Of a DNA stretch of 64,000 bases, positions 16,230 through 50,061 are shown piece by piece. This DNA is from Escherichia coli O157:H7. Lineage in GTDB: Bacteria > Pseudomonadota > Gammaproteobacteria > Enterobacterales > Enterobacteriaceae. Made by a program: the position numbers and the translations under genes. The stretch lies in assembly GCF_013167455.1 (NCBI RefSeq), contig NZ_CP038328.1; one strand, written 5' to 3'. The notes under the pieces are model-generated. The model saw nothing but the letters and a program-made list of their open reading frames with translations. It had not been told where the DNA came from and ran no database searches. Positions within the stretch are counted from its first letter, which is position 1. The number at the start of each line of letters is the position of its first letter.

Positions 16230-16442
16230 GAAAATACCTTAGTGGGTAAACGCTTACATTGTTTCAGTGTTACGGAAAACGCCCGTTGGTTCAAGGGGCG
16301 GCGTGTTTTCATCGTGGGAATGTGAGCCAAACGCAAATAAGTAAGACAAAAAAAGAGATTGCAAACCTTTGGTTACACTTTGCGAAACGCTGTTGCGATT
16401 GACCGCTGGTGGCGTTTGGCTTCAGGTTGCTAAAGTGGTGAT

Positions 16443-16525
16443 CCCAGAGGTATTGATAGGTGAAGTCAACTTCGGGTTGAGCACATGAATTACACCAGCC
16501 TGCGCAGATGCGCAGGTTTTTTTTT
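16443..16525 (+). ncRNA. omrB: OmrB small regulatory RNA (Hfq-dependent, OmpR-regulated)
   Basis: Sequence CCCAGAGGTATTGATAGGTGAAGTCAACTTCGGGTTGAGCACATGAATTACACCAGCCTGCGCAGATGCGCAGG followed by a T-run; recognised as OmrB. Confidence 0.85.
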
Positions 16526-16639: not shown

Positions 16640-16727
16640 CCCAGAGGTATTGATTGGTGAGATTATTCGGTACGCTCTTCGTACCCTGTCTCTTGCACCA
16701 ACCTGCGCGGATGCGCAGGTTTTTTTT
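16640..16727 (+). ncRNA. omrA: OmrA small regulatory RNA (paralogue of OmrB)
   Basis: Sequence CCCAGAGGTATTGATTGGTGAGATTATTCGGTACGCTCTTCGTACCCTGTCTCTTGCACCAACCTGCGCGGATGCGCAGG followed by a T-run; shares 5' and 3' ends with OmrB. Confidence 0.85.
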
Positions 16728-16793: not shown

Positions 16794-20211
<3,418 letters not shown>

Positions 20212-21267
20212 TTTTCAGCTGATCCATCGTGGTTGCGCCCAGCAGAGTGCTGGCAACAAACGGTTGACGGCGTACAAACGCGAGCGCCATCTGAGCAGGG
20301 GCCAGGCCATGACGTCTGGCGATATCAACATACGCCGCGACGGCTTTTTGCGTTTGCTCACCGCTATAGCGGGTGAACCGACTAAAGAGCGTATTACGTG
20401 CGCCAGCGGGTTTTGCACCATTGAGATATTTCCCGGTCAGCGTGCCGAAACCCAGGCACGAATAGGCCAGCAGTTCGACCCCTTCATACTGGCTGACTTC
20501 TGCCAGACCTACTTCAAAACTGCGGTTTAACAGACTGTAAGGGTTCTGAATGGTGACAATACGCGGCAGATCGTGTTTGTCCGCCAGATGCAGGTAGCGC
20601 ATTACGCCAAATGCAGTTTCGTTCGACACGCCGATATAACGAATTTTTCCCGCTCGTTGGTACTCTGCCAGTGCGTCCAGCGTATCCAGCAGCGAAACCG
20701 CAGGCGCAGAATCTGTCCAGCTATAACCGAGTTTGCCGAAGCAGTTGGTTGGGCGCTGCGGCCAGTGCACCTGATAAAGATCGAGGTAATCAGTCTGCAG
20801 ACGCTTGAGGCTGTCATGCAGCGCTTCGCGGATATTCTTCCGATCCAGCGCCTGATCCGGGCGGATGCCCTTGTCATTATTGCGCGACGGTCCGCTCACT
20901 TTGGAGGCGATAATTAACTTTTCGCGGCTGCCATGTTTCGCCAGCCAGTTGCCGACGTAGGTTTCGGTTAACCCTTGCGTTTCGGGGCGCGGAGGTACTG
21001 GGTACATTTCGGCAACGTCGATAAGGTTAATGCCCTGAGCGACGGCATAGTCGAGTTGTGCGTGGGCGTCGGCTTCGCTGTTCTGTTCACCAAACGTCAT
21101 CGTGCCAAGCCCCAGCGTGCTGACTTCCAGCGAACTGTGGGGTATACGGTGATATTGCATAGCCGTTTCCTTTTTATAATCACGACATAAGGAATATAAA
21201 AATGGCAGAGGGAAGGGAAAAGGGAAAGAGAAAAATCTTAAGGCCAGCCGGATGCTGACCTTATTTG

Positions 21268-27601: not shown

Positions 27602-28396
27602 ATGAAACAGTATTTAGAACTGATGCAAAAAGTGCTCGACGAAGGCACACAGAAAAACGACCGTACCGGAACCGGAACGCTTTCCATTTTTGGTCATCAG
27701 ATGCGTTTTAACCTGCAGGATGGATTCCCGCTGGTGACAACTAAACGTTGCCACCTGCGTTCCATCATCCATGAACTGCTGTGGTTTCTGCAGGGCGACA
27801 CTAACATTGCTTATCTACACGAAAACAATGTCACCATCTGGGACGAATGGGCCGATGAAAACGGCGACCTCGGACCAGTGTATGGTAAACAGTGGCGCGC
27901 CTGGCCAACGCCAGATGGTCGTCATATTGACCAGATCACTACGGTACTGAACCAGCTGAAAAACGACCCGGATTCCCGCCGCATTATTGTTTCAGCGTGG
28001 AACGTAGGCGAACTGGATAAAATGGCGCTGGCACCGTGCCATGCATTCTTCCAGTTCTATGTGGCAGACGGCAAACTCTCTTGCCAGCTTTATCAGCGCT
28101 CCTGTGACGTCTTCCTCGGCCTGCCGTTCAACATTGCCAGCTACGCGTTACTGGTGCATATGATGGCGCAGCAGTGCGATCTGGAAGTGGGTGATTTTGT
28201 CTGGACCGGTGGCGATACGCACCTGTACAGTAATCATATGGATCAAACTCATCTGCAATTAAGCCGTGAACCGCGTCCGCTGCCGAAGTTGATTATCAAA
28301 CGTAAACCCGAATCCATCTTCGACTACCGTTTCGAAGACTTTGAGATTGAAGGCTACGATCCACATCCGGGCATTAAAGCGCCGGTGGCTATCTAA
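27602..28396 (+). CDS. thyA: thymidylate synthase
   Basis: 264-aa ORF starting [49 protein letters not shown]. Confidence 0.97.
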
Positions 28397-28579
28397 TTAC
28401 GAAACATCCTGCCAGAGCCGACGCCAGTGTGCGTCGGTTTTTTTACCCTCCGTTAAATTCTTCGAGACGCCTTCCCGAAATTTTGCAACGTCCTGCAACG
28501 GCGTAAATAGTCCGGAAGATGCGCCGAAGAAATAGAAACTGGCCCTCGTCTTTTTTTCTCCTCGCTCCATACTGCCGGC

Positions 28580-29050
28580 ATGAAAACACAACGTGGTTAT
28601 ACGCTGATTGAAACGCTGGTCGCGATGCTGATTTTGGTCATGCTAAGCGCAAGTGGACTCTATGGCTGGCAATACTGGCAGCAGTCGCAACGGCTTTGGC
28701 AAACCGCCAGCCAGGCGCGGGACTATTTGCTCTATTTACGTGAAGATGCCAACTGGCATAACCGCGACCACAGTATCAGTTTTATCAGGGAGGGGACGTT
28801 ATGGTGCCTTGTGAGTTCCGTTGCTGGGGCGAATACCTGTCATGGCAGTTCACCATTGGTCTTTGTGCCACGCTGGCCCGAAGTCGAAATGAGCGACCTG
28901 ACACCTTCGCTTGCTTTCTTTGGCCTGCGCAATACCGCATGGGCCGGGCATATTGGCTTCAAAAACTCAACGGGCGAGTGGTGGCTGGTGGTTTCGCCGT
29001 GGGGAAGACTCCGGCTTTGTCAGCAAGGAGAAACAGAAGGATGCCTGTAA
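28580..29050 (+). CDS. ppdA: prepilin-type minor pseudopilin (prepilin peptidase-dependent protein A)
   Basis: 156-aa ORF with type IV prepilin-like N-terminus [20 protein letters not shown]. Confidence 0.88.
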
Positions 29051-29604
29051 AAGAGCAAGGTTTTTCTCTGCTGGAAGTGTTGATTGCTATGGCGATCAGT
29101 AGCGTATTGTTGTTGGGGGCTGCACGCTTTCTGCCTGCGTTACAGCGTGAAAGTTTAACGAGCACCCGTAAGCTGGCACTGGAAGATGAAATCTGGCTGC
29201 GGGTATTTACCGTCGCGAAGCATCTCCAGAGGGCGGGTTATTGTCATGGCATCTGTACCGGCGAAGGGCTGGAAATTGTCGGACAGGGTGACTGTATCAT
29301 TGTGCAGTGGGATGCGAACAGTAACGGTATCTGGGATCGCGAACCGGTAAAAGAGTCCGACCAGATTGGATTTCGTCTGAAGGAGCAAGTGTTGGAAACG
29401 CTACGCGGTGCGACATCCTGTGAAGGTAAGGGCTGGGATAAAGTCACTAATCCGGATGCCATCATTATCGACACTTTTCAGGTCGTACGTCAGGATGTCA
29501 GCGGCTTCTCGCCGGTGTTGACGGTTAATATGCGTGCTGCCAGTAAGTCTGAACCGCAAACCGTGGTGGATGCCAGCTATAGCGTGACAGGATTCAACCT
29601 GTGA
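29041..29604 (+). CDS. ppdB: prepilin-type minor pseudopilin (prepilin peptidase-dependent protein B)
   Basis: ORF-track ORF starts at 28801, but the prepilin N-terminus [25 protein letters not shown] begins at ATG 29041 (187 aa). Confidence 0.85.
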
Positions 29605-30008
29605 ACCGCGAAAAGGGTGTTTCGTCACTGGCTCTGGTCCTGATGCTGCTGGTTTTGGGTAGCTTGCTATTACAAGGAATGAGCCAGCAGGATCGCAGTT
29701 TTGCCTCTCGCGTGAGCATGGAAAGTCAGTCACTGCGCCGCCAGGCCATCGTTCAGTCGGCGTTGGCGTGGGGGAAAATGCACTCCTGGCAGACGCAGCC
29801 CGCAGTTCAGTGCTTACTGTACGCTGCCACTGGTGCCCGGGTTTGTTTGCGTTTACTGGAAGATAATGAAGCCTTATTAATTGCCGGTTATGAAGGCGTT
29901 TCGTTGTGGCGAACAGGCGAAGTCATTGATGGAAAAATTGTTTTTTCGCCACGCGGCTGGAGCGATTTTTGTCCGCTGAAAGAGGGGGCGTTATGTCAGC
30001 TTCCCTGA
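29601..30008 (+). CDS. ygdB: small membrane-anchored protein in the ppd operon
   Basis: 135-aa ORF with N-terminal hydrophobic segment; start overlaps ppdB stop. Confidence 0.8.
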
Positions 30009-30316
30009 AGAATCAACAAGGCTTTAGCCTGCCGGAGGTAATGTTGGCGATGGTGTTGATGGTGATGATTGTCACTGCGTTATCGGGTTTCCAGCGAACA
30101 TTAATGAACAGTCTTACCAGCAGAAACCAGTACCAACAGCTCTGGCGGCATGGTTGGCAGCAAACGCAATTGCGCGCGATTTCGCCACCTGCCAACTGGC
30201 AGGTCAACCGAATGCAGACATCGCAGGCGGGATGTGTCAGCATCAGCGTTACGCTAGTTTCACCCGGGGGCAGAGCAGGCGAGATGACCCGCCTGCATTG
30301 CCCGAATCGTCAGTAG
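29993..30316 (+). CDS. ppdC: prepilin-type minor pseudopilin (prepilin peptidase-dependent protein C)
   Basis: Prepilin-like N-terminus [27 protein letters not shown] from ATG 29993 (107 aa); the ORF-track entry begins 8 codons earlier at a TTG. Confidence 0.8.
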
Positions 30317-30328
30317 TCAGGAGCCGCT

Positions 30329-33300
30329 ATGTTAAGGGTCTACCATTCCAATCGTCTGGACGTGCTGGAAGCGTTGATGGAGTTTATTGTCGAACGCGAA
30401 CGGCTGGACGATCCTTTCGAACCAGAGATGATTCTGGTGCAAAGTACCGGTATGGCACAGTGGCTGCAAATGACCCTGTCGCAAAAGTTTGGTATTGCGG
30501 CAAACATTGATTTTCCGCTGCCTGCGAGCTTTATCTGGGATATGTTCGTCCGGGTGTTACCGGAGATCCCCAAAGAGAGCGCCTTTAACAAACAGAGCAT
30601 GAGCTGGAAACTGATGACTCTGCTGCCGCAATTGCTGGAGCGCGAAGACTTTACCCTGTTGCGGCATTATCTGACTGACGATAGCGACAAGCGAAAGCTG
30701 TTCCAGCTTTCCTCAAAAGCGGCGGACCTGTTTGACCAGTATCTGGTCTATCGTCCGGACTGGCTGGCACAGTGGGAAACAGGACATTTGGTTGAAGGGC
30801 TGGGAGAGGCACAGGCCTGGCAAGCGCCGTTGTGGAAGGCGCTGGTGGAATATACCCATGAACTCGGACAACCGCGCTGGCACCGCGCCAATCTCTATCA
30901 GCGCTTTATCGAAACGCTGGAGTCCGCGACGACCTGCCCGCCGGGGTTACCTTCGCGCGTCTTTATATGCGGTATTTCCGCGTTACCGCCTGTTTATCTC
31001 CAGGCGCTCCAGGCGCTGGGTAAACATATTGAAATCCATCTCCTGTTTACCAACCCCTGCCGTTATTACTGGGGCGACATTAAAGATCCTGCTTATCTGG
31101 CGAAACTACTGACTCGCCAGCGCCGACACAGTTTTGAAGATCACGAATTACCGCTATTTCGCGACAGCGAAAATGCCGGGCAGCTCTTTAACAGCGATGG
31201 TGAACAGGATGTCGGCAACCCGCTGCTGGCCTCATGGGGCAAGCTTGGGCGCGACTACATTTATCTCCTTTCTGACCTGGAGAGCAGCCAGGAGCTGGAC
31301 GCCTTTGTCGATGTGACGCCAGATAACCTGCTGCATAACATTCAGTCTGACATTCTGGAACTGGAAAACCGCGCCGTTGCTGGTGTGAACATCGAAGAGT
31401 TTTCCCGTAGCGATAACAAACGTCCGCTTGATCCACTGGATAGCAGTATCACCTTCCACGTTTGCCATAGCCCGCAGCGTGAAGTTGAAGTTTTACACGA
31501 TCGCCTGCTGGCGATGCTGGAAGAAGACCCGACACTTACTCCGCGCGACATCATCGTGATGGTGGCTGATATCGACAGCTACAGTCCGTTTATTCAGGCT
31601 GTGTTTGGTAGCGCACCTGCGGATCGTTACCTGCCTTACGCCATTTCCGACCGTCGGGCGCGGCAGTCGCATCCTGTACTTGAAGCGTTTATCAGCCTGT
31701 TATCGTTGCCAGACAGCCGCTTTGTGTCGGAAGACGTGCTGGCATTACTGGATGTGCCGGTGCTGGCGGCGCGGTTTGACATCACCGAAGAAGGGCTGCG
31801 TTATTTACGTCAGTGGGTCAACGAATCCGGCATTCGTTGGGGGATAGATGACGACAACGTTCGCGAGCTGGAACTCCCCGCCACCGGACAACACACCTGG
31901 CGATTTGGCCTGACGCGTATGTTGTTGGGCTACGCGATGGAGAGCGCGCAGGGCGAGTGGCAATCGGTTCTACCTTATGATGAATCGAGCGGCTTAATTG
32001 CAGAACTGGTGGGGCATCTGGCTTCACTGCTAATGCAGCTAAACATCTGGCGTCGCGGGCTGGCACAGGAGCGTCCGCTGGAAGAGTGGTTGCCGGTTTG
32101 TCGCGATATGCTCAACGCCCTCTTCCTGCCGGATGCGGAAACCGAAGCGGCGATGACGCTGATCGAACAACAATGGCAGGCGATTATCGCCGAAGGTTTA
32201 GGTGCGCAGTATGGCGATGCGGTGCCGCTGTCACTATTGCGTGATGAACTGGCACAGCGCCTGGATCAAGAACGTATCAGCCAGCGTTTTCTCGCCGGGC
32301 CGGTTAACATTTGTACTCTGATGCCAATGCGTTCAATTCCGTTCAAAGTGGTTTGCCTGCTGGGAATGAACGACGGCGTTTATCCACGTCAGCTTGCGCC
32401 ATTGGGCTTTGACCTGATGAGCCAGAAACCGAAGCGTGGCGACCGTAGCCGTCGCGATGACGACCGCTACCTGTTCCTGGAAGCGTTAATTTCCGCGCAG
32501 CAAAAACTCTATATCAGCTATATCGGGCGTTCCATTCAGGATAACAGTGAACGTTTCCCGTCGGTACTGGTGCAGGAACTGATCGACTACATCGGGCAAA
32601 GTCATTATCTACCGGGCGATGAAGCGCTCAACTGTGATGAAAGCGAGGCAAGGGTAAAAGCGCATCTTACTTGCCTCCATACCCGGATGCCGTTTGATCC
32701 GCAAAACTACCAGCCAGGCGAACGACAAAGCTATGCTCGTGAATGGCTACCTGCGGCCAGCCAGGCTGGTAAAGCACATTCTGAATTTGTTCAGCCGCTG
32801 CCGTTTACCTTACCGGAAACCGTGCCGCTGGAAACGCTACAACGATTCTGGGCACATCCGGTGCGGGCGTTCTTCCAGATGCGTTTGCAGGTGAACTTCC
32901 GTACTGAAGACAGCGAAATCCCCGACACCGAGCCATTTATTCTGGAAGGACTTAGCCGTTATCAAATCAATCAGCAGTTATTGAATGCACTGGTTGAGCA
33001 GGATGATGCCGAACGCTTGTTCCGCCGCTTCCGGGCGGCAGGGGATTTACCGTATGGCGCTTTTGGTGAAATTTTCTGGGAAACACAGTGCCAGGAGATG
33101 CAGCAGCTTGCCGACAGAGTCATTGCCTGTCGCCAGCCGGGGCAGAGTATGGAAATTGATCTCGCTTGCAACGGTGTGCAGATAACTGGCTGGTTGCCGC
33201 AGGTGCAGCCGGATGGCTTGTTGCGCTGGCGTCCCTCTTTATTAAGTGTGGCGCAGGGAATGCAACTTTGGCTGGAACACCTTGTCTACTGTGCCAGCGG

Positions 33301-33697
33301 TGGTAATGGTGAAAGTCGCCTTTTTCTACGCAAAGACGGCGAGTGGCGTTTTCCGCCGCTTGCAGCCGAACAGGCTTTGCATTACCTCTCACAACTGATT
33401 GAGGGGTATCGTGAAGGGATGTCCGCGCCATTGCTGGTGTTACCTGAAAGTGGCGGCGCGTGGCTAAAAACCTGTTATGACGCGCAAAACGATGCCATGC
33501 TGGATGACGATTCCACGTTGCAAAAAGCCCGTACGAAATTCCTTCAGGCTTACGAAGGCAACATGATGGTGAGTGGCGAAGGTGATGATATCTGGTATCA
33601 AAGGCTCTGGCGGCAATTAACACCAGAGACAATGGAGGCAATCGTTGAACAGTCGCAACGTTTCCTGTTACCGCTGTTTCGCTTTAATCAGTCATGA
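30329..33697 (+). CDS. recC: exodeoxyribonuclease V (RecBCD) gamma subunit
   Basis: 1122-aa ORF starting MLRVYHSNRLDVLEALMEFIVERERLDDPFEPEMILVQSTGMAQWLQMTL. Confidence 0.97.
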   Translation: MLRVYHSNRLDVLEALMEFIVERERLDDPFEPEMILVQSTGMAQWLQMTLSQKFGIAANIDFPLPASFIWDMFVRVLPEIPKESAFNKQSMSWKLMTLLPQLLEREDFTLLRHYLTDDSDKRKLFQLSSKAADLFDQYLVYRPDWLAQWETGHLVEGLGEAQAWQAPLWKALVEYTHELGQPRWHRANLYQRFIETLESATTCPPGLPSRVFICGISALPPVYLQALQALGKHIEIHLLFTNPCRYYWGDIKDPAYLAKLLTRQRRHSFEDHELPLFRDSENAGQLFNSDGEQDVGNPLLASWGKLGRDYIYLLSDLESSQELDAFVDVTPDNLLHNIQSDILELENRAVAGVNIEEFSRSDNKRPLDPLDSSITFHVCHSPQREVEVLHDRLLAMLEEDPTLTPRDIIVMVADIDSYSPFIQAVFGSAPADRYLPYAISDRRARQSHPVLEAFISLLSLPDSRFVSEDVLALLDVPVLAARFDITEEGLRYLRQWVNESGIRWGIDDDNVRELELPATGQHTWRFGLTRMLLGYAMESAQGEWQSVLPYDESSGLIAELVGHLASLLMQLNIWRRGLAQERPLEEWLPVCRDMLNALFLPDAETEAAMTLIEQQWQAIIAEGLGAQYGDAVPLSLLRDELAQRLDQERISQRFLAGPVNICTLMPMRSIPFKVVCLLGMNDGVYPRQLAPLGFDLMSQKPKRGDRSRRDDDRYLFLEALISAQQKLYISYIGRSIQDNSERFPSVLVQELIDYIGQSHYLPGDEALNCDESEARVKAHLTCLHTRMPFDPQNYQPGERQSYAREWLPAASQAGKAHSEFVQPLPFTLPETVPLETLQRFWAHPVRAFFQMRLQVNFRTEDSEIPDTEPFILEGLSRYQINQQLLNALVEQDDAERLFRRFRAAGDLPYGAFGEIFWETQCQEMQQLADRVIACRQPGQSMEIDLACNGVQITGWLPQVQPDGLLRWRPSLLSVAQGMQLWLEHLVYCASGGNGESRLFLRKDGEWRFPPLAAEQALHYLSQLIEGYREGMSAPLLVLPESGGAWLKTCYDAQNDAMLDDDSTLQKARTKFLQAYEGNMMVSGEGDDIWYQRLWRQLTPETMEAIVEQSQRFLLPLFRFNQS

Positions 33698-33872
33698 GCG
33701 CTGTATAAAAATTGCGCAATCTATCCGCTTACTTTATGATGCGCACCAGTCACGGACTGATGGTTATATAAACATAGGCTGACTCGTGCAGCACAAGATT
33801 AAATTCTGGCAGATGATTTGCGTTAACCTGTTGAATCTGGCCAGAAAATAAAGTTGATTATGAGGTCCGTGA

Positions 33873-36761
33873 ATGCCCCGCAGCACCTGGTTCAAAGCAT
33901 TATTGTTGTTAGTTGCCCTTTGGGCACCCTTAAGTCAGGCAGAAACGGGATGGCAGCCGATTCAGGAAACCATCCGTAAAAGTGATAAAGATAACCGCCA
34001 GTATCAGGCTATACGTCTGGATAACGGTATGGTGGTCTTGCTGGTTTCTGATCCGCAGGCAGTTAAATCGCTATCGGCGCTGGTGGTGCCCGTTGGGTCG
34101 CTGGAAGATCCCGAGGCGTACCAGGGGCTGGCACATTACCTTGAACATATGAGTCTGATGGGGTCGAAAAAGTACCCGCAGGCTGACAGTCTGGCCGAAT
34201 ATCTCAAAATGCACGGCGGTAGTCACAATGCCAGCACTGCGCCGTATCGCACGGCTTTCTATCTGGAAGTTGAGAACGACGCCTTGCCCGGTGCGGTAGA
34301 CCGCCTGGCCGATGCTATTGCAGAACCCTTGCTCGACAAGAAATACGCCGAACGTGAGCGTAATGCAGTGAACGCTGAATTAACCATGGCGCGTACACGT
34401 GACGGGATGCGCATGGCACAGGTCAGCGCAGAAACCATTAACCCGGCACACCCCGGTTCAAAGTTTTCTGGTGGTAACCTCGAAACTTTAAGCGACAAAC
34501 CTGGTAATCCGGTGCAGCAGGCGCTGAAAGATTTCCACGAGAAGTACTATTCCGCCAATTTGATGAAGGCGGTTATTTACAGTAATAAACCGCTGCCGGA
34601 GTTGGCAAAAATGGCGGCGGACACTTTTGGTCGCGTGCCGAACAAAGAGAGCAAAAAACCGGAAATCACCGTGCCGGTAGTCACCGACGCGCAAAAGGGC
34701 ATTATCATTCATTACGTCCCAGCGCTGCCGCGTAAAGTTCTGCGCGTTGAGTTTCGCATCGATAACAACTCAGCGAAGTTCCGCAGTAAAACGGATGAAT
34801 TGATTACCTATCTGATTGGTAATCGCAGCCCAGGTACACTGTCTGACTGGCTGCAAAAGCAGGGGTTAGTTGAGGGCATTAGCGCCAACTCCGATCCTAT
34901 CGTCAACGGCAACAGCGGCGTATTAGCGATCTCTGCGTCTTTAACCGATAAAGGTCTGGCGAATCGCGATCAGGTTGTGGCGGCTATTTTTAGCTACCTC
35001 AATTTGTTACGTGAAAAAGGGATCGATAAACAATACTTCGATGAACTGGCGAATGTGCTGGATATCGACTTCCGTTATCCGTCAATCACCCGTGATATGG
35101 ATTACGTCGAATGGCTGGCAGATACCATGATTCGCGTTCCTGTTGAGCATACGCTGGATGCAGTCAATATTGCCGATCGGTACGATGCTAAAGCAGTAAA
35201 AGAACGTCTGGCGATGATGACGCCGCAGAATGCGCGTATCTGGTATATCAGCCCGAAAGAGCCGCACAATAAAACGGCTTATTTTGTCGATGCGCCGTAT
35301 CAGGTCGATAAAATCAGCGAACAAACTTTCGCTGACTGGCAGCAAAAAGCTGCCAATATTGCGCTCTCCTTACCGGAGCTTAACCCCTATATTCCTGACG
35401 ATTTCTCGCTGATTAAGTCAGAGAAGAAATATGACCATCCAGAGCTGATTGTTGATGAGTCGAATCTGCGCGTGGTGTATGCGCCAAGCCGTTATTTTTC
35501 CAGCGAACCCAAAGCTGATGTCAGCCTGATTTTGCGTAATCCGAAAGCCATGGACAGCGCCCGCAATCAGGTGATGTTTGCGCTCAATGATTATCTCGCA
35601 GGGCTGGCGCTTGATCAGTTAAGCAACCAGGCGTCGGTTGGTGGCATAAGTTTTTCCACCAACGCTAACAACGGCCTTATGGTTAATGCTAATGGTTACA
35701 CCCAGCGTCTGCCGCAGCTGTTCCAGGCATTGCTCGAGGGATACTTTAGCTATACCGCTACGGAAGATCAGCTTGAGCAGGCGAAGTCCTGGTATAACCA
35801 GATGATGGATTCCGCAGAAAAGGGTAAAGCGTTTGAGCAGGCGATTATGCCCGCGCAGATGCTCTCGCAAGTGCCGTACTTCTCGCGAGATGAACGGCGT
35901 AAAATTTTGCCCTCCATTACGTTGAAAGAGGTGCTGGCTTATCGTGACGCCTTAAAATCAGGGGCTCGACCAGAGTTTATGGTTATCGGCAACATGACCG
36001 AGGCCCAGGCAACAACGCTGGCACGCGATGTGCAAAAACAGTTGGGCGCTGATGGTTCAGAGTGGTGTCGAAACAAAGATGTAGTGGTCGATAAAAAACA
36101 ATCCGTCATCTTTGAAAAAGCCGGTAACAGCACCGACTCCGCACTGGCAGCGGTATTTGTACCGACTGGCTACGATGAATACACAAGCTCAGCCTATAGC
36201 TCTCTGTTGGGGCAGATCGTACAGCCGTGGTTCTACAATCAGTTGCGTACCGAAGAACAATTGGGCTATGCCGTGTTTGCGTTTCCAATGAGCGTGGGGC
36301 GTCAGTGGGGCATGGGCTTCCTTTTGCAAAGCAATGATAAACAGCCTTCATTCTTGTGGGAGCGTTACAAGGCGTTTTTCCCAACCGCAGAGGCAAAATT
36401 GCGAGCGATGAAGCCAGATGAGTTTGCGCAAATCCAGCAGGCGGTAATTACCCAGATGCTGCAGGCACCGCAAACGCTCGGCGAAGAAGCATTGAAGTTA
36501 AGTAAAGATTTCGATCGCGGCAATATGCGCTTCGATTCGCGTGATAAAATCGTGGCCCAGATAAAACTGCTGACGCCGCAAAAACTTGCTGATTTCTTCC
36601 ATCAGGCGGTGGTCGAGCCGCAAGGCATGGCTATTCTGTCGCAGATTTCCGGCAGCCAGAACGGGAAAGCCGAATATGTGCATCCTGAAGGCTGGAAAGT
36701 GTGGGAGAACGTCAGCGCGTTGCAGCAAACAATGCCCCTGATGAGTGAAAAGAATGAGTGA
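33873..36761 (+). CDS. ptrA: protease III (pitrilysin), periplasmic M16 zinc metalloprotease
   Basis: 962-aa ORF with signal peptide and HxxEH motif (HYLEH). Confidence 0.96.
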   Translation: MPRSTWFKALLLLVALWAPLSQAETGWQPIQETIRKSDKDNRQYQAIRLDNGMVVLLVSDPQAVKSLSALVVPVGSLEDPEAYQGLAHYLEHMSLMGSKKYPQADSLAEYLKMHGGSHNASTAPYRTAFYLEVENDALPGAVDRLADAIAEPLLDKKYAERERNAVNAELTMARTRDGMRMAQVSAETINPAHPGSKFSGGNLETLSDKPGNPVQQALKDFHEKYYSANLMKAVIYSNKPLPELAKMAADTFGRVPNKESKKPEITVPVVTDAQKGIIIHYVPALPRKVLRVEFRIDNNSAKFRSKTDELITYLIGNRSPGTLSDWLQKQGLVEGISANSDPIVNGNSGVLAISASLTDKGLANRDQVVAAIFSYLNLLREKGIDKQYFDELANVLDIDFRYPSITRDMDYVEWLADTMIRVPVEHTLDAVNIADRYDAKAVKERLAMMTPQNARIWYISPKEPHNKTAYFVDAPYQVDKISEQTFADWQQKAANIALSLPELNPYIPDDFSLIKSEKKYDHPELIVDESNLRVVYAPSRYFSSEPKADVSLILRNPKAMDSARNQVMFALNDYLAGLALDQLSNQASVGGISFSTNANNGLMVNANGYTQRLPQLFQALLEGYFSYTATEDQLEQAKSWYNQMMDSAEKGKAFEQAIMPAQMLSQVPYFSRDERRKILPSITLKEVLAYRDALKSGARPEFMVIGNMTEAQATTLARDVQKQLGADGSEWCRNKDVVVDKKQSVIFEKAGNSTDSALAAVFVPTGYDEYTSSAYSSLLGQIVQPWFYNQLRTEEQLGYAVFAFPMSVGRQWGMGFLLQSNDKQPSFLWERYKAFFPTAEAKLRAMKPDEFAQIQQAVITQMLQAPQTLGEEALKLSKDFDRGNMRFDSRDKIVAQIKLLTPQKLADFFHQAVVEPQGMAILSQISGSQNGKAEYVHPEGWKVWENVSALQQTMPLMSEKNE

Positions 36762-39700
36762 TGTCGCCGAGACACTAGATCCTTTGCGCTTGCCCTTTCA
36801 GGGCGAGCGCCTGATTGAAGCCTCTGCCGGCACAGGCAAAACCTTTACGATTGCGGCGCTCTATTTGCGCCTGTTACTTGGACTAGGCGGTTCCGCCGCC
36901 TTTCCCCGCCCGCTGACCGTTGAAGAACTGCTGGTGGTCACCTTTACCGAGGCTGCCACGGCAGAATTGCGTGGTCGTATCCGTAGCAATATCCATGAGT
37001 TGCGCATCGCCTGTCTGCGTGAAACCACCGACAATCCACTGTACGAACGTCTGCTGGAAGAGATCGACGATAAAGCGCAAGCCGCGAAGTGGTTGTTGTT
37101 AGCCGAACGGCAGATGGATGAAGCGGCAGTCTTTACTATTCACGGTTTTTGCCAGCGCATGCTCAACCTGAATGCCTTTGAATCCGGCATGCTGTTTGAG
37201 CAGCAGCTGATTGAAGATGAGTCTCTGCTACGTTACCAGGCCTGCGCCGATTTCTGGCGTCGCCACTGCTACCCGCTGCCGCGTGAAATAGCCCAGGTCG
37301 TCTTTGAAACCTGGAAAGGGCCGCAGGCGTTGCTGCGCGATATTAATCGTTATCTGCAAGGTGAAGCGCCGGTTATCAAAGCACCGCCGCCCGATGATGA
37401 AACGCTGGCTTCCCGTCACGCGCAAATTGTGGCGCGTATTGATACGGTAAAACAGCAGTGGCGCGACGCAGTGGGTGAACTGGATGCGCTGATCGAATCT
37501 TCTGGTATTGATCGACGCAAGTTTAACCGTAGCAATCAGGCTAAATGGATCGACAAGATCAGCGCCTGGGCAGAAGAAGAGAGAAACAGTTATCAGTTGC
37601 CGGAGTCGCTGGAAAAATTCTCCCAGCGTTTCTTAGAAGATCGCACGAAGGCCGGGGGGGAAACCCCGCGACATCCACTGTTTGAGGCGATCGATCAACT
37701 GCTTGCAGAACCATTGTCGATCCGCGATCTGGTGATCACCCGCGCATTGGCTGAGATCCGCGAAACAGTAGCGCGTGAAAAACGCCGCCGTGGCGAATTG
37801 GGTTTTGATGACATGTTAAGTCGGCTCGATTCCGCGCTGCGTAGCGAAAGCGGTGAGGTGTTGGCAGCGGCGATCCGTACGCGATTCCCGGTGGCAATGA
37901 TCGATGAATTTCAGGATACCGACCCCCAGCAGTACCGAATTTTTCGCCGTATCTGGCACCATCAGCCGGAAACCGCATTGTTGCTGATTGGCGACCCGAA
38001 GCAGGCCATATATGCATTCCGGGGTGCGGATATCTTCACTTATATGAAGGCGCGTAGTGAAGTTCACGCCCACTACACTTTAGACACCAACTGGCGCTCC
38101 GCACCTGGAATGGTGAACAGTGTGAACAAGCTTTTCAGCCAGACTGATGACGCGTTCATGTTTCGCGAAATACCGTTTATTCCAGTGAAATCAGCCGGGA
38201 AAAATCAGGCGTTACGTTTTGTCTTTAAAGGTGAAACGCAGCCTGCGATGAAAATGTGGCTGATGGAAGGCGAAAGTTGCGGCGTTGGCGACTATCAAAG
38301 TACCATGGCGCAGGTAAGTGCTGCGCAAATTCGCGACTGGCTACAAGCCGGACAGCGGGGCGAAGCGTTGCTGATGAACGGCGACGACGCGCGTCCGGTG
38401 CGTGCTTCGGACATCAGTGTGCTGGTGCGCAGCCGCCAGGAGGCCGCCCAGGTGCGCGATGCCTTAACGTTGCTGGAAATCCCTTCCGTTTACCTTTCGA
38501 ACCGCGACAGTGTTTTTGAAACTCTGGAAGCGCAGGAAATGCTTTGGTTGTTGCAGGCGGTGATGACGCCCGAACGTGAGAACACCCTGCGTAGTGCGCT
38601 GGCAACGTCAATGATGGGGCTGAACGCGCTGGATATCGAAACGCTGAATAATGACGAACATGCGTGGGACGCGGTGGTCGAAGAGTTCGATGGTTATCGG
38701 CAAATCTGGCGCAAACGTGGCGTTATGCCGATGATGCGGGCGCTGATGTCGGCGCGTAACATTGCAGAAAACTTGCTGGCAACGGCAGGCGGTGAGCGGC
38801 GTCTTACCGATATCTTGCATATCAGCGAACTGCTACAAGAAGCCGGAACGCAGCTGGAAAGTGAACATGCGCTGGTACGCTGGTTATCGCAACATATCCT
38901 CGAGCCAGACAGTAATGCCTCCAGCCAACAAATGCGCCTCGAAAGTGATAAACATCTGGTACAGATTGTCACGATCCATAAATCAAAAGGGCTGGAATAT
39001 CCGCTGGTCTGGTTGCCATTTATTACCAATTTCCGCGTCCAGGATCAGGCGTTTTATCACGATCGCCACTCGTTTGAGGCTGTTCTGGATCTTAACGCTG
39101 CGCCAGAAAGCGTCGATCTTGCGGAGGTCGAACGTCTGGCGGAAGATCTGCGTTTGCTTTACGTGGCGCTGACGCGTTCGGTTTGGCATTGCAGTCTCGG
39201 CGTTGCACCGCTGGTGCGCCGTCGTGGCGATAAAAAAGGTGACACCGACGTCCACCAAAGTGCCCTCGGGCGTTTGCTGCAAAAAGGGGAACCGCAAGAT
39301 GCGGCAGGGCTTCGCACCTGTATTGAAGCGTTATGCGATGATGATATTGCCTGGCAAACGGCACAAACTGGTGATAACCAGCCCTGGCAGGTTAATGATG
39401 CTTTAACTGCAGAACTGAATGCGAGGACGCTACAACGATTGCCCGGCGATAACTGGCGTGTCACCAGCTACTCCGGCTTGCAGCAGCGTGGTCACGGTAT
39501 CGCTCAGGATCTGATGCCACGGCTGGATGTTGATGCCGCAGGCGTGGTCAGCGTCGTTGAAGAACCGACGTTAACACCGCATCAGTTCCCGCGCGGTGCG
39601 TCACCGGGGACATTCTTGCACAGTTTGTTTGAAGACCTCAATTTTACCCAGCCGGTTGACCCGAACTGGGTACAGGAAAAACTGGAACTCGGCGGCTTTG

Positions 39701-40296
39701 AATCGCAGTGGGAACCGGTGTTGACCGAGTGGATCACGGCTGTCCTCCAGGCACCTCTCAATGAAACGGGTGTTAGCCTGAGTCAGCTTTCCGACCGCGA
39801 TAAACAGGTGGAGATGGAGTTTTACCTGCCGATTAGCGAACCGCTCATCGCCAGCCAGCTTGATGCACTAATTCGCCAGTTTGACCCGCTATCCGCTGGC
39901 TGCCCGCCGCTGGAGTTCATGCAGGCACGTGGCATGTTAAAAGGCTTTATCGACCTGGTGTTCCGCCACGAAGGGCGTTATTACCTGCTCGACTATAAAT
40001 CCAACTGGTTGGGTGAAGATAGTTCGGCTTACACCCAACAGGCTATGGCAGCGGCAATGCAGGCACACCGCTATGATCTGCAATATCAGCTTTATACCCT
40101 GGCGCTGCACCGTTATCTGCGCCATCGCATTGCTGATTACGACTATGAGCGCCACTTTGGCGGCGTTATTTATCTGTTCCTGCGTGGTGTTGATAAAGAA
40201 CATCCGCAACAAGGGATTTACACAACCCGCCCCAACGCCGGGTTGATTGACCTGATGGATGAGATGTTTGCCGGTATGACTCTGGAGGAGGCGTAA
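36754..40296 (+). CDS. recB: exodeoxyribonuclease V (RecBCD) beta subunit, helicase-nuclease
   Basis: N-terminus [31 protein letters not shown] from ATG 36754 (1180 aa); the ORF-track entry starts 3 codons earlier; overlaps ptrA stop by 8 nt. Confidence 0.96.
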
Positions 40297-42122
40297 TGAA
40301 ATTGCAAAAGCAATTACTGGAAGCTGTGGAGCACAAACAGCTACGCCCGCTGGACGTGCAGTTTGCCCTGACCGTGGCGGGAGATGAACATCCTGCCGTC
40401 ACCCTCGCGGCGGCACTGTTAAGTCATGATGCCGGAGAGGGGCACGTTTGTTTGCCGCTTTCACGACTGGAAAATAATGAGGAGTCGCATCCGCTGTTGG
40501 CGACCTGTGTCAGTGAAATCGGTGAGCTACAAAATTGGGAAGAATGCTTGCTGGCTTCACAAGCGGTCAGCCGGGGAGATGAACCCACGCCGATGATCCT
40601 CTGTGGCGATCGTCTTTATTTGAATCGCATGTGGTGTAACGAGCGGACGGTAGCGCGCTTCTTCAATGAGGTGAATCATGCCATCGAGGTGGATGAAGCC
40701 TTGTTGGCGCAAACCCTGGATAAACTCTTTCCGACTGGTGATGAAATTAACTGGCAAAAAGTGGCGGCAGCAGTGGCGCTGACGCGGCGGATCTCGGTGA
40801 TTTCCGGCGGCCCTGGCACCGGTAAAACGACCACCGTAGCGAAGTTGCTGGCAGCGTTAATTCAAATGGCCGACGGCGAACGCTGCCGTATCCGTCTGGC
40901 TGCACCAACGGGTAAAGCTGCCGCGCGCTTAACCGAATCTCTCGGCAAGGCTTTGCGACAGTTACCGCTGACCGATGAACAAAAGAAACGTATTCCGGAA
41001 GATGCCAGTACTTTGCACCGATTGCTGGGTGCGCAGCCGGGTAGCCAGCGTTTACGTCATCATGCCGGTAACCCGCTGCATCTTGATGTGCTGGTGGTAG
41101 ATGAAGCGTCAATGATCGATCTGCCTATGATGTCGAGACTGATCGACGCCTTGCCCGATCATGCGCGAGTGATCTTTCTCGGCGATCGTGATCAACTGGC
41201 CTCGGTTGAGGCTGGGGCTGTGCTGGGCGATATCTGCGCTTATGCCAATGCCGGCTTTACCGCCGAGCGTGCCGGGCAGCTAAGCCGCCTGACGGGAACT
41301 CACGTTCCGGCAGGAACTGGCACAGAAGCGGCATCTTTGCGCGACAGTCTCTGCCTGCTGCAAAAAAGCTATCGTTTCGGCAGCGATTCTGGCATTGGTC
41401 AGTTAGCTGCGGCGATCAACCGTGGTGATAAAACGGCAGTGAAAACCGTTTTTCAGCAGGATTTTACTGATATTGAAAAACGGCTTTTACAGAGCGGCGA
41501 AGATTATATTGCGATGCTTGAGGAAGCTCTTGCGGGTTATGGACGTTATCTGGATCTGCTGCAAGCGCGTGCCGAGCCGGATTTAATCATTCAGGCGTTC
41601 AATGAGTACCAACTTTTGTGCGCCCTGCGGGAAGGGCCATTTGGCGTGGCTGGACTGAATGAGCGAATTGAGCAGTTTATGCAACAGAAGCGCAAAATTC
41701 ATCGTAATCCGCACTCTCGTTGGTACGAAGGCCGACCGGTGATGATTGCCCGTAATGACAGCGCGCTTGGGTTGTTTAATGGCGATATCGGTATTGCGCT
41801 GGATCGCGGGCAGGGGACGCGCGTCTGGTTTGCGATGCCGGACGGCAATATTAAGTCTGTGCAACCGAGTCGCTTGCCAGAGCACGAAACTACGTGGGCG
41901 ATGACGGTACATAAATCGCAGGGATCGGAGTTCGACCATGCGGCGTTGATTTTACCGAGCCAACGCACGCCGGTAGTAACGCGAGAGCTGGTTTATACCG
42001 CGGTGACCCGCGCGCGTCGCCGTCTGTCGCTGTATGCCGATGAGCGCATATTAAGTGCGGCAATCGCCACTCGTACTGAGCGGCGCAGTGGTCTGGCGGC
42101 GTTGTTTAGTTCACGGGAATAA
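40296..42122 (+). CDS. recD: exodeoxyribonuclease V (RecBCD) alpha subunit, helicase
   Basis: 608-aa ORF with Walker A (GGPGTGKTT); start overlaps recB stop. Confidence 0.96.
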
Positions 42123-42132
42123 ACGTAATTGC

Positions 42133-42169
42133 CGGATGCGACGTACGAGTGTTACGCATGTCGCATCCG
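42133..42169. repeat. REP-like palindrome between convergent recD and argA
   Basis: Perfect 10-bp inverted repeat CGGATGCGAC ... GTCGCATCCG (42133-42142 / 42160-42169). Confidence 0.6.
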
Positions 42170-42183
42170 ACGATTTTCATCGC

Positions 42184-43515
42184 TTACCCTAAATCCGCCA
42201 TCAACACTTTGGATTTACGCTGGTAGTTGTACAACTGCTTTTTGCTTTCGGGCAATAAATCAATATCCACCGGGGTAAATCCACGTTCCTGGAACCAGTG
42301 AATACTGCGCGTGGTCAGCACAAACAATTTGCTTAAGCCGCTCTGCTTCGCCTGAGCGGCAATGCGTTCCAGCAGAACCTCGCCCCGTGATGAGCTGCGG
42401 TAATCCGGGTGAACTGCCACACAGGCCATTTCCCCAATCTTCTCTTCCGGGAACGGATAGAGCGCGGCGCAGGCAATAGTCGTGTTATCGCGCTGAATAA
42501 TGGTGAATTTGTCGATTTCCATCTCCAGCTGCTCGCGAGAACGGCGTACCAGAATACCTTGCTGCTCCAGCGGGCGAATCAACTCCAGAATACCGCCGAT
42601 ATCGTTGATTGTTGCGCGACGAATCTGCTCGGCGCTTTCCATCACAATCTGCGTACCGATACCGTCGCGTGAGAACAACTCTTGCAACAGCGCGCCATCT
42701 TCCTGATAACTGATTAAATGACAGCGACGCACGCCGCTGCGGCAGGCTTTCACTGCGCCACGCAAAAAGCGCACCGTACCGGAGTTGTAATCGCCTTTCT
42801 CTTCCTGGGCTTCTACCCGCGCTTGCGCTTCGTTAGGGAAAAGTTCGGAGACAATATCACCGTCGTCATTAGTGACGCCCTGGGAAGAGCAAAAACCAAT
42901 CATCTTCTCAGCTTTCAGTTTGATGGCCAGTTGAGTGGCAATCTCTTCCGAGGTCAGATTAAAGCTCTCGCCAGTGACTGAAACAGCGACCGGCCCCATT
43001 AGCACTATTGCACCGCTGTCCAGTTGACGATGGATCGCGTCTTCATCAATCCGCCGGATACGCCCGCTATGGCAGTAATCCACGCCGTCATCGACGCCCA
43101 GCGGCTGGGCAATAATAAAATTGCCACTGACGACGTTGATATGCGCGCCCTGTAGCGGCGTGTTATTGAGACTCATCGACAGGCGAGCAGTAATATCCAG
43201 TTGCAATGTTCCCGCAGCCTGCTTCACCAGTTCCAGTGTTTTGGCGTCGGTCACACGTATATTCTTGTGATACAGCGGTTCGTGGTGATGCGCAGCCAGA
43301 TTTGCGTCGATCTGCGGACGTGCGCCATAGACCACCACCAGACGGATGCCGAGGCTGTGCAACAACCCGATATCATTAACGATACTGGAGAAATTCTCAT
43401 GCTCAATGGCTTCACCGCCGAGCATGATGACAAACGTTTTTCCCCGGTGGGTATTGATATAGGGAACCGAATGGCGGAATCCCTCGACCAGCTCGGTTTT
43501 ACGTTCCTTTACCAC
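42184..43515 (-). CDS. argA: amino-acid N-acetyltransferase (N-acetylglutamate synthase)
   Basis: ORF-track ORF is 465 aa, but ArgA begins (M)[35 protein letters not shown] at the GTG at 43515-43513 (443 aa). Confidence 0.92.
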
Positions 43516-43519
43516 GGCA

Positions 43520-43600
43520 CACCTCTTTGCATTATTATTCGAATTTATTGTATTTTTATTCTGTTTTTTCGCAGGGTGCAAGTGTAAATTTTATGCGAGA
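43520..43600 (-). promoter_or_regulatory. argA promoter region with putative ArgR operator (ARG boxes)
   Basis: AT-rich sequence CATTATTATTCGAATTTATTGTATTTTTATTC just upstream of the argA start resembles tandem ARG boxes; not rigorously scored. Confidence 0.4.
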
Positions 43601-43746
43601 GCGACTTTTTTATCAGTAATGGCGTGAATATAAAAAGAATGTTTACCGTTTATTAGATGACAGATTATGCGTCTTTCGCTAAAGTTTCCGGTCAAATTAG
43701 TCGTTTACTTGTTACACAGCTTAGATTTCTTTTGCTCGGGAGAGGC

Positions 43747-45073: not shown

Positions 45074-45150
<77 letters not shown>

Positions 45151-45183
45151 TCACCGTACTGCTTTTACTTCATCAAATTTGAT

Positions 45184-45260
<77 letters not shown>

Positions 45261-45293
45261 TCACCGTACTGCTTTACTTCATCAAATTTTAAT

Positions 45294-45370
<77 letters not shown>

Positions 45371-46764: not shown

Positions 46765-46862
46765 GCCGGATGCGGCGTGAACGCCTTATCCGGCCTACAA
46801 ATCATGCAAATCCAAAATATTGCAGGAGTTATGTAGGCCTGATAAGCGTAGCGCATCAGGCA
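46765..46862. repeat. REP / BIME-like extragenic palindromes between mltA and tcdA
   Basis: GCCGGATGCGGCGTGAACGCCTTATCCGGCCTAC (46765-46798) and GTAGGCCTGATAAGCGTAGCGCATCAGGC (46834-46862) are typical REP sequences in opposite orientation. Confidence 0.65.
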
Positions 46863-49855: not shown

Positions 49856-50061
49856 AAAAAAAAGCACCGCAATTAGGCGGTGCTACATTAATCACTATGG
49901 ACAGACAGGGTAAATGTACAGGAAGTGAAAAAAGGTAGCTTTGCTACCATGGTCTGAATCGCAGACCAATTGCAAACACAACAACACAACATCACAACCG
50001 TAAGCCAAAAGTTCACCAGAACACGCATTCCGATAAAACTTTTCGTTCCGGCTCAGGAAGT
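49856..50061 (-). ncRNA. gcvB: GcvB small regulatory RNA (Hfq-dependent)
   Basis: Plus strand 49856-50061 is the reverse complement of the GcvB sequence (5' ACTTCCTGAGCCGGAACGAAAAGTTTTATCGGAATGCGTGTTCTGGTGAACTTTTGGCTTACGGTTGTGATGTTGTGTTGTTGTGTTTGCAATTGG..., terminator hairpin GCACCGCCTAATTGCGGTGC plus T-run); divergent from gcvA. Confidence 0.9.

Follow-up and report, generated by a model that had tools for sequence, protein, structure and literature searches.

How does ptrA, which encodes a secreted periplasmic protease, come to lie among the genes of the RecBCD enzyme, and do the Chi octamers carried by these genes set the locus apart? We addressed both questions in a stretch of 64,000 nucleotides (nt) of the Escherichia coli O157:H7 contig NZ_CP038328.1, referred to as the window, in which recC, ptrA, recB and recD occupy positions 30329–42122 (the rec block). 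[quoted passage not shown] The most plausible view of ptrA is that of a passenger gene that entered an ancestral recC-recB-recD operon, and the Chi sites are ordinary members of a genome-wide population polarised along the leading strand. Published work already describes the recC-ptrA-recB-recD order with both gene overlaps, the two-operon structure and the Hfq control point, as well as the polarity of Chi along the leading strand.

The rec block and its products

The 11,794 bases of the rec block are 100% identical to many O157:H7 genomes, as revealed by a megablast search of a set of complete E. coli genomes (5,426). Of these, 5,422 contain 80% of the block or more, and the genes are annotated everywhere as recC, ptrA (pitrilysin), recB and recD. 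A six-frame listing of open reading frames (ORFs) features four co-directional ORFs on the plus strand (30329–33697, 33873–36761, 36745/36754–40296 and 40296–42122), and both the ORFs and the annotation place ptrA between recC and recB. This placement and the four gene identities had been proposed from the sequence alone in the original prediction; they are correct, the identities being borne out by the 100% nucleotide identity and by Pfam and PDB matches. The elements of the block are listed below (aa, amino acids; UTR, untranslated region; SF1, superfamily 1).

30329–33697, plus strand: recC, exodeoxyribonuclease V gamma subunit, 1122 aa (annotation, Pfam)
33698–33872, plus strand: recC-ptrA spacer, 175 nt, harbouring the ptrA-recB-recD operon's promoter region and 5'UTR (two-operon organisation from PMC12342828)
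33823–33858, plus strand: equivalent of the Hfq-binding stretch (36 nt) that was defined in the K-12 ptrA 5'UTR, with 3 mismatches to K-12
33873–36761, plus strand: ptrA, pitrilysin (protease III), a periplasmic M16 zinc metalloprotease, 962 aa
36754–36761, plus strand: ptrA/recB junction, ATGAGTGA, 8-nt overlap (recB ATG 36754–36756, ptrA TGA 36759–36761)
36754–40296, plus strand: recB, exodeoxyribonuclease V beta subunit, 1180 aa, SF1 3'-5' helicase with a C-terminal PD-(D/E)XK nuclease
40294–40298, plus strand: recB/recD junction, TAATG (recB TAA 40294–40296, recD ATG 40296–40298, shared base 40296)
40296–42122, plus strand: recD, exodeoxyribonuclease V alpha subunit, 608 aa, SF1 5'-3' helicase

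RecC, the subunit that holds the Chi-recognition tunnel, features the Exonuc_V_gamma (PF04257, E = 8e-118) and RecC_C (PF17946, E = 8e-65) domains. RecB matches PF00580, PF13361 and PF12705, has an intact Walker A motif (GTGKT, residues 26–30) and aligns over its full length with chain B of PDB entry 1W36 (2646 bits). RecD combines RecD_N (PF21185) with PF13245, PF13604 and PF13538, and its Walker A motif, also GTGKT, is located at residues 174–178. Chi-regulated, ATP-dependent exonuclease and helicase activity on double-stranded DNA would be expected of the encoded enzyme, given ~98–99.6% protein identity to the characterised K-12 enzyme.

PtrA matches four M16 domains (PF00675, PF05193, PF16187 and PF22456) and carries the zinc motif HYLEH (HxxEH) at residues 88–92. 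The N-terminus features a signal peptide, MPRSTWFKALLLLVALWAPLSQA, followed by ET. PDB entry 1Q2L_A aligns to residues 24–962, and a match that begins at residue 24 is consistent with a cleaved signal peptide. The protein is nearly identical to 1Q2L (five amino-acid differences from the K-12 protein) and is homologous to human insulin-degrading enzyme (E ~1e-109). The four-domain architecture, the HxxEH motif and the signal peptide are shared with the pitrilysin/insulin-degrading enzyme family (MEROPS M16A). All the features by which a RecBCD cluster, Chi, a pitrilysin and overlapping cistrons are recognised in silico were found at the locus.

The corresponding region of E. coli K-12 MG1655 (b2822–b2819) has the same gene order, the same gene lengths, both junctions and the 175-nt spacer. 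K-12 and the window differ at 56 nucleotides in recC, 48 in ptrA, 96 in recB and 45 in recD, and at 4, 5, 20 and 5 amino acids in RecC, PtrA, RecB and RecD, respectively. Four single-nucleotide polymorphisms distinguish the recC-ptrA spacers.

Some details of this variation are recorded here in their own right. Many of the 20 residues that distinguish RecB from its K-12 counterpart fall in the C-terminal third of the protein (883–1166); relaxed constraint, recombination or phage anti-RecBCD pressure might account for this divergence. Three of the four differences in the 175-nt spacer lie within the 36-nt Hfq stretch, the deletion of which raises RecB translation in K-12 (PMC12342828). Among the 5,426 complete genomes, one has no match to the rec block and three cover less than 80% of it, and one match sits on a record labelled as a plasmid.

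Overlapping cistrons and the position of ptrA

The 8-nt overlap of the ptrA stop with the recB start, which had been predicted, is present exactly, as ATGAGTGA. The recB stop and the recD start, also predicted to overlap, share one base (40296, in TAATG), and a one-base recB/recD overlap has been reported (PMC2586629). At both junctions, as in overlapping cistrons, the downstream gene has its start codon at or near the stop codon that ends its upstream neighbour on the same mRNA. The ribosome-binding region of recB falls inside ptrA, and the purine stretch 5' of recB is weak. In contrast, a strong Shine-Dalgarno sequence, GGAGGAGG, is found just 5' of the recD start, within recB. This difference fits RecB as the limiting, tightly controlled subunit.

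According to published work, recC forms one operon and ptrA-recB-recD another; rec transcription is constitutive, without SOS regulation, and RecBCD is present at fewer than 10 molecules per cell (PMC12342828). The ptrA-recB-recD operon is very weakly expressed, recB has its ribosome-binding site (RBS) inside ptrA, and Hfq binding near the ptrA RBS lowers RecB translation (PMC12342828). A ribosome terminating on an upstream cistron could re-initiate on the next one via the overlap. Termination-reinitiation at ATGAGTGA would tie the synthesis of RecB to the translation of ptrA, and the same process at TAATG would tie RecD to the translation of recB. Hfq acting at the ptrA 5'UTR would further restrict RecB output.

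Consensus promoter scanning of the recC-ptrA spacer gave nothing above chance. In a scan of positions 28300–43700, promoter-like sites were fewer than in shuffled sequences and terminator-like sites occurred at chance level, and neither a usable ptrA promoter nor a usable recD terminator was found. The Rfam scan detected no RNA family within the rec block.

To place these junctions among relatives, one genome per species was scanned, which yielded 80 loci, all from Enterobacteriaceae, with RecB proteins 68–97% identical. The order recC-ptrA-recB-recD is found in every locus that reaches far enough, and the flanks are usually thyA/ppdC and argA. The ptrA and recB genes overlap in 79 of the 80 loci, and the size of the overlap varies. 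For instance, an 8-nt overlap (ATGAnTGA) occurs in Escherichia, Citrobacter, Salmonella, Phytobacter and some Kosakonia, a 4-nt overlap (ATGA) in Enterobacter, Klebsiella, Raoultella, Kluyvera and others, and one of ~20 nt in three loci. The only exception is Intestinirhabdus alba, in which a 413-nt GC-rich spacer separates ptrA from recB (locus L020, 9588–10000). The recB and recD genes overlap in all 79 scorable loci, by 4 nt (ATGA) in 71 and by 1 nt in 8.

Outgroups, which were reached through a 50%-identity library of representative proteins and contig look-ups, have a different arrangement. Tatumella (Erwiniaceae) has ptsP-lgt-thyA-ppdA-ppdB-ygdB-recC-recB-recD-argA-amiC, with no ptrA; the recC-recB gap is 45 nt (locus L086, 7956–8000), and the recB/recD junction is ATGACTGA. 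In Aeromonas caviae, the order is recC-recB-recD, with overlaps at recC/recB (TAATG) and recB/recD (ATGA), and one metagenomic contig has an Aeromonas-like arrangement. Loci of the endosymbionts Steffania, Arsenophonus and Serratia symbiotica, together with two similar loci, contain recB but no recC next to it; recD follows in most of them, and they are uninformative on ptrA.

In the ancestral-type operon of A. caviae and Tatumella, the three subunit genes are thus those of the window, in unchanged order, and their junctions overlap or nearly do so. This operon differs from the window in lacking ptrA between recC and recB, and in that recB would be coupled to recC, or follows it, rather than being coupled to ptrA. 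Horizontal insertion of ptrA has been proposed (Cromie 2009, as cited in PMC12342828), and the lack of ptrA between recC and recB in Tatumella and Aeromonas lends support to this published account, in which the gene split an ancestral recC-recB-recD order. The overlapping or close upstream partner of recB is recC in Aeromonas and ptrA in Enterobacteriaceae, and coupling at the recB start may have been kept through the insertion. The preservation of a recB-start overlap of 8 or 4 nt across Enterobacteriaceae, despite the change of partner from recC to ptrA, may be of modest interest to specialists in RecBCD expression. The same holds for the full synteny of Tatumella without ptrA.

The fixity of the arrangement could also be explained if ptrA were not a passenger at all, its product or its translation being functionally integrated with RecBCD. 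This explanation draws on the invariant gene order in the 80 sampled species and on the overlap in 79 of them, as well as on the Hfq control point for RecB translation within the ptrA 5'UTR (PMC12342828), by which RecB output would be set through the ptrA translation initiation region. PtrA, however, is an M16 protease that is secreted to the periplasm and has a signal peptide, as the start of the 1Q2L match at residue 24 also indicates, and is not known to take part in DNA repair (PMC12342828). Moreover, the whole synteny is found in Tatumella in the absence of ptrA, and the Aeromonas order is recC-recB-recD. Secretion of PtrA and the existence of outgroups without its gene at this position imply that any integration concerns expression in cis and not protein function. 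We regard integration as quite improbable and favour the insertion of ptrA as a passenger.

No evidence contradicts the identification of the locus, but several reservations apply to the accompanying interpretation. We infer translational coupling at both junctions from the sequence and the literature, and the main source speaks only of 'potential translational coupling' (PMC12342828). The Intestinirhabdus alba spacer indicates that the ptrA/recB overlap is not obligatory. Finally, the state observed in Tatumella could have arisen by secondary loss of the gene and need not be ancestral.

Chi sites in the rec block and in the window

An exhaustive search of both strands of the window, which the original prediction had proposed as a check, identified eight exact GCTGGTGG octamers on the plus strand and none on the minus strand. 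Their positions are given below, with the residues encoded across the octamer for those located in genes.

16405–16412, plus strand: Chi in the galR-aas intergenic region, 31 nt 5' of the first OmrA/B small RNA (sRNA) gene; the sole intergenic Chi
19287–19294, plus strand: Chi in lplT, T-L-V-G
19629–19636, plus strand: Chi in lplT, S-L-V-G
28984–28991, plus strand: Chi in ppdA, TGG-CTG-GTG-GTT, W-L-V-V; conserved in K-12
30841–30848, plus strand: Chi in recC, A-L-V-E, aa 171–174; same position in K-12
34079–34086, plus strand: Chi in ptrA, A-L-V-V, aa 69–72
36930–36937, plus strand: Chi in recB, L-L-V-V, aa 59–62, in the conserved ELLVVTFT segment
41090–41097, plus strand: Chi in recD, V-L-V-V, aa 265–268

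The rec block therefore contains four Chi, one each in recC, ptrA, recB and recD. Two Chi had been reported earlier from an admittedly non-exhaustive scan by eye. Both exist, and the coordinates given for recB (36930–36937) were exact, whereas those given for ppdA (28983–28990) were one base off and the pair falls short of the full count of eight in the window and four in the block. The five Chi from ppdA to recD occur in identical register in K-12 MG1655. The tandem OmrA/OmrB sRNA genes (RF00079) occupy 16443–16524 and 16640–16727 on the plus strand, between galR and aas.

Almost every 4-kb segment of the stretch has a positive GC skew, which identifies the plus strand as the G-rich leading strand. 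In K-12, the locus maps to the minus strand at 2.95–2.96 Mb, and oriC is located at 3,925,744–3,925,975. From these positions, the locus belongs to the replichore that is copied toward decreasing K-12 coordinates; the leading strand is accordingly the plus strand of the window, with oriC to the left of the stretch. A comparison of Chi orientation with replication, also proposed at the outset, thus places eight of eight Chi on the leading strand, in the canonical active polarity.

In Enterobacteriaceae, Chi is polarised, over-represented in the core genome beyond oligonucleotide composition, and conserved (PMC8022716). Judged from the sequence, the sites in the window appear to differ in nothing from this description, having the same exact octamer, 5'-GCTGGTGG-3', the same leading-strand polarity, over-representation and location in core genes. 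RecBCD moves with RecB on the 3'-ended strand and reads Chi on that strand, as described in PMC7641324 and PMC7644769. Recognition of Chi on the RecB strand implies that RecBCD travelling from a terminus-side break toward oriC meets all eight Chi in the active orientation. Loaded at a terminus-proximal end (high window coordinates) and bound for oriC, the enzyme would enter each Chi from its 3' side, and would switch at Chi from degradation to RecA loading.

The E. coli genome averages ~1 Chi per 4.6 kb, roughly three quarters of them on the leading strand. Dinucleotide shuffles of the window gave 1.96 ± 1.39 Chi over both strands, and none of the 100 shuffles reached the eight observed. The 8:0 strand split has P = 0.008 under an even-strand null, and P = 0.10 if the genome-wide leading-strand bias is ~75%.

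All seven Chi located in genes share a single phase, nnG-CTG-GTG-Gnn (Leu-Val), which shows that these Chi are carried by favoured Leu and Val codons in genes whose transcription runs in the direction of replication. It could be argued from this that the Chi of the rec block are a pure by-product of codon usage, CTG and GTG being preferred, without any selection on Chi. In line with such an origin, two other octamers, GCTGGCGG (426 copies) and GCTGCTGG (370), outnumber Chi (273) on the sense strand of the block in 77 related loci, and orthologous Chi sites turn over at synonymous positions.

Codon usage falls short of the observed numbers, however. Synonymous-codon shuffles of the window gave 3.71 Chi on the plus strand and 1.43 on the minus strand, as opposed to the eight observed on the plus strand (P = 0.021 for at least eight); in the rec block 0.79 were expected and four observed (P = 0.002). 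This null leaves codon-pair and junction dinucleotide bias unpreserved, so that the size of the Chi excess is approximate, a reservation to be added to those listed above. Four near-Chi control octamers of similar codon make-up, GCTGGCGG, GCTGCTGG, GGTGGTGG and GCTGGAGG, are unpolarised in the window (7:10, 9:8, 3:2 and 1:4, respectively), which indicates that the 8:0 polarity of Chi goes beyond codon usage alone.

Relatives provide further evidence against a pure codon effect. In 77 complete blocks, Chi occurs on average 3.55 times on the sense strand and 0.25 times on the antisense strand, a ratio of ~14:1, as compared with 4–7:1 for other abundant octamers. Chi has the strongest strand asymmetry of the abundant octamers in these blocks, although GCTGGCGG and GCTGCTGG are commoner on the sense strand; among 25 octamers occurring more than once, only ACTGGTGG (55:3) exceeds its strand ratio. 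The E. coli Chi sites are kept at 18 of 49 testable loci in recC, 25 of 73 in ptrA, 39 of 62 in recB and 19 of 24 in recD. Relative to same-phase octamers in the same genes, these retention rates stand at the 92nd, 88th, 99th and 99th percentile, respectively, with the caveat that preferred codons and conserved protein motifs favour retention too. A genome-wide Chi excess beyond oligonucleotide composition has, in addition, been published (PMC8022716). We therefore consider it unlikely that codon usage is the whole explanation.

The opposite proposal is that the presence of one Chi per rec gene reflects selection specific to the locus, the genes of the Chi-reading enzyme being shielded from degradation by RecBCD or repaired preferentially. 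The rec block, 11.8 kb long, has four Chi, one in each gene, where synonymous shuffles give 0.79; this would agree with the proposal, as would the retention of the recB and recD sites at the 99th percentile. Chi is scarce in the flanks, in the window as well as in the 77 relatives, in which 49 sense and 39 antisense Chi were counted in 803 kb of flank, as opposed to 273 and 19 in 903 kb of block. Yet the density of the rec block, 1 Chi per 2.9 kb, is normal for E. coli when set against the genome average (Poisson P of at least 4, given 1.9, ~0.13), and only four of the seven genic Chi of the window fall within the block. The related loci are phylogenetically non-independent. The recB Chi lies in the conserved ELLVVTFT segment, which we take to be an SF1 helicase motif, and conservation of this octamer may reflect protein constraint combined with preferred codons. 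No mechanism demands Chi in these particular genes. Selection specific to the locus is, in our judgement, extremely improbable, and the Chi of the block are regarded as part of the leading-strand population of the genome. A special Chi enrichment of the rec block was considered in view of the low synonymous-shuffle expectation and the Chi-poor flanks, and was not adopted as the principal interpretation on account of the unremarkable density, the non-independence of the loci, and protein constraint together with preferred codons.

Neighbouring genes and other features of the window

Gene context was obtained from the annotation of NZ_CP022689.1, projected onto the window. The left part reads ygeH...yqeF-kduID-araE-ygeA-lysRA-galR-aas-lplT-tas-ygdRQ-mutH-rppH-ptsP-lgt-thyA, and the middle continues with ppdA-ppdB-ygdB-ppdC-recC-ptrA-recB-recD-argA-amiC-metZWV-mltA-tcdA-csdEA-ygdI-gcvA. 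The right part, after gcvA, is ...-fuc-xni-sdaBC.

A tightly packed array is located directly 5' of recC:

28580–30316, plus strand: ppdA-ppdB-ygdB-ppdC, co-directional with recC (annotation)

Overlaps of 10 nt (ppdA/ppdB), 4 nt (ppdB/ygdB) and 16 nt (ygdB/ppdC), and a gap of 12 nt between ppdC and recC, indicate that the packed, overlapping block begins upstream of 30329, the left boundary originally drawn. This arrangement would allow expression of recC by read-through from the ppd genes. A CAGGAG Shine-Dalgarno sequence precedes recC.

The convergent lplT/tas junction (~20049–20211, breakpoint 20120/20121) lacks 72 bp present in the O157 strain CDC#03-98. The missing segment corresponds to the last 12 codons and the stop codon of lplT, plus the hairpin AACGCCGGTTTTAACCGGCGTT. 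As a consequence of the loss, the lplT ORF (18967–20211) has 414 aa, as opposed to 397, and overlaps the 3' end of tas (20120–21160, minus strand) by 92 nt. Among the E. coli matches listed, 22 of 22 align across the additional 72 bp as two separate pieces. The deletion therefore appears to be rare or unique, or else to be an artefact of assembly or editing.

The first ~8000 positions of the window have a GC content of 0.32–0.41, as compared with ~0.52 elsewhere, and contain ygeH, ygeG, yqeK, yqeJ, yqeI and yqeH, with no Chi. This segment is presumably a margin of the remnant ETT2 type III secretion island. Three identical tRNA-Met genes in tandem, corresponding to the initiator genes metZ, metW and metV of K-12, are found at 45074–45370 on the minus strand. 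Rfam matches were obtained for the ES036 (CssrF) sRNA upstream of tcdA (46798–46840, plus strand) and for the GcvB sRNA, which is divergent from gcvA (49856–50061, minus strand).

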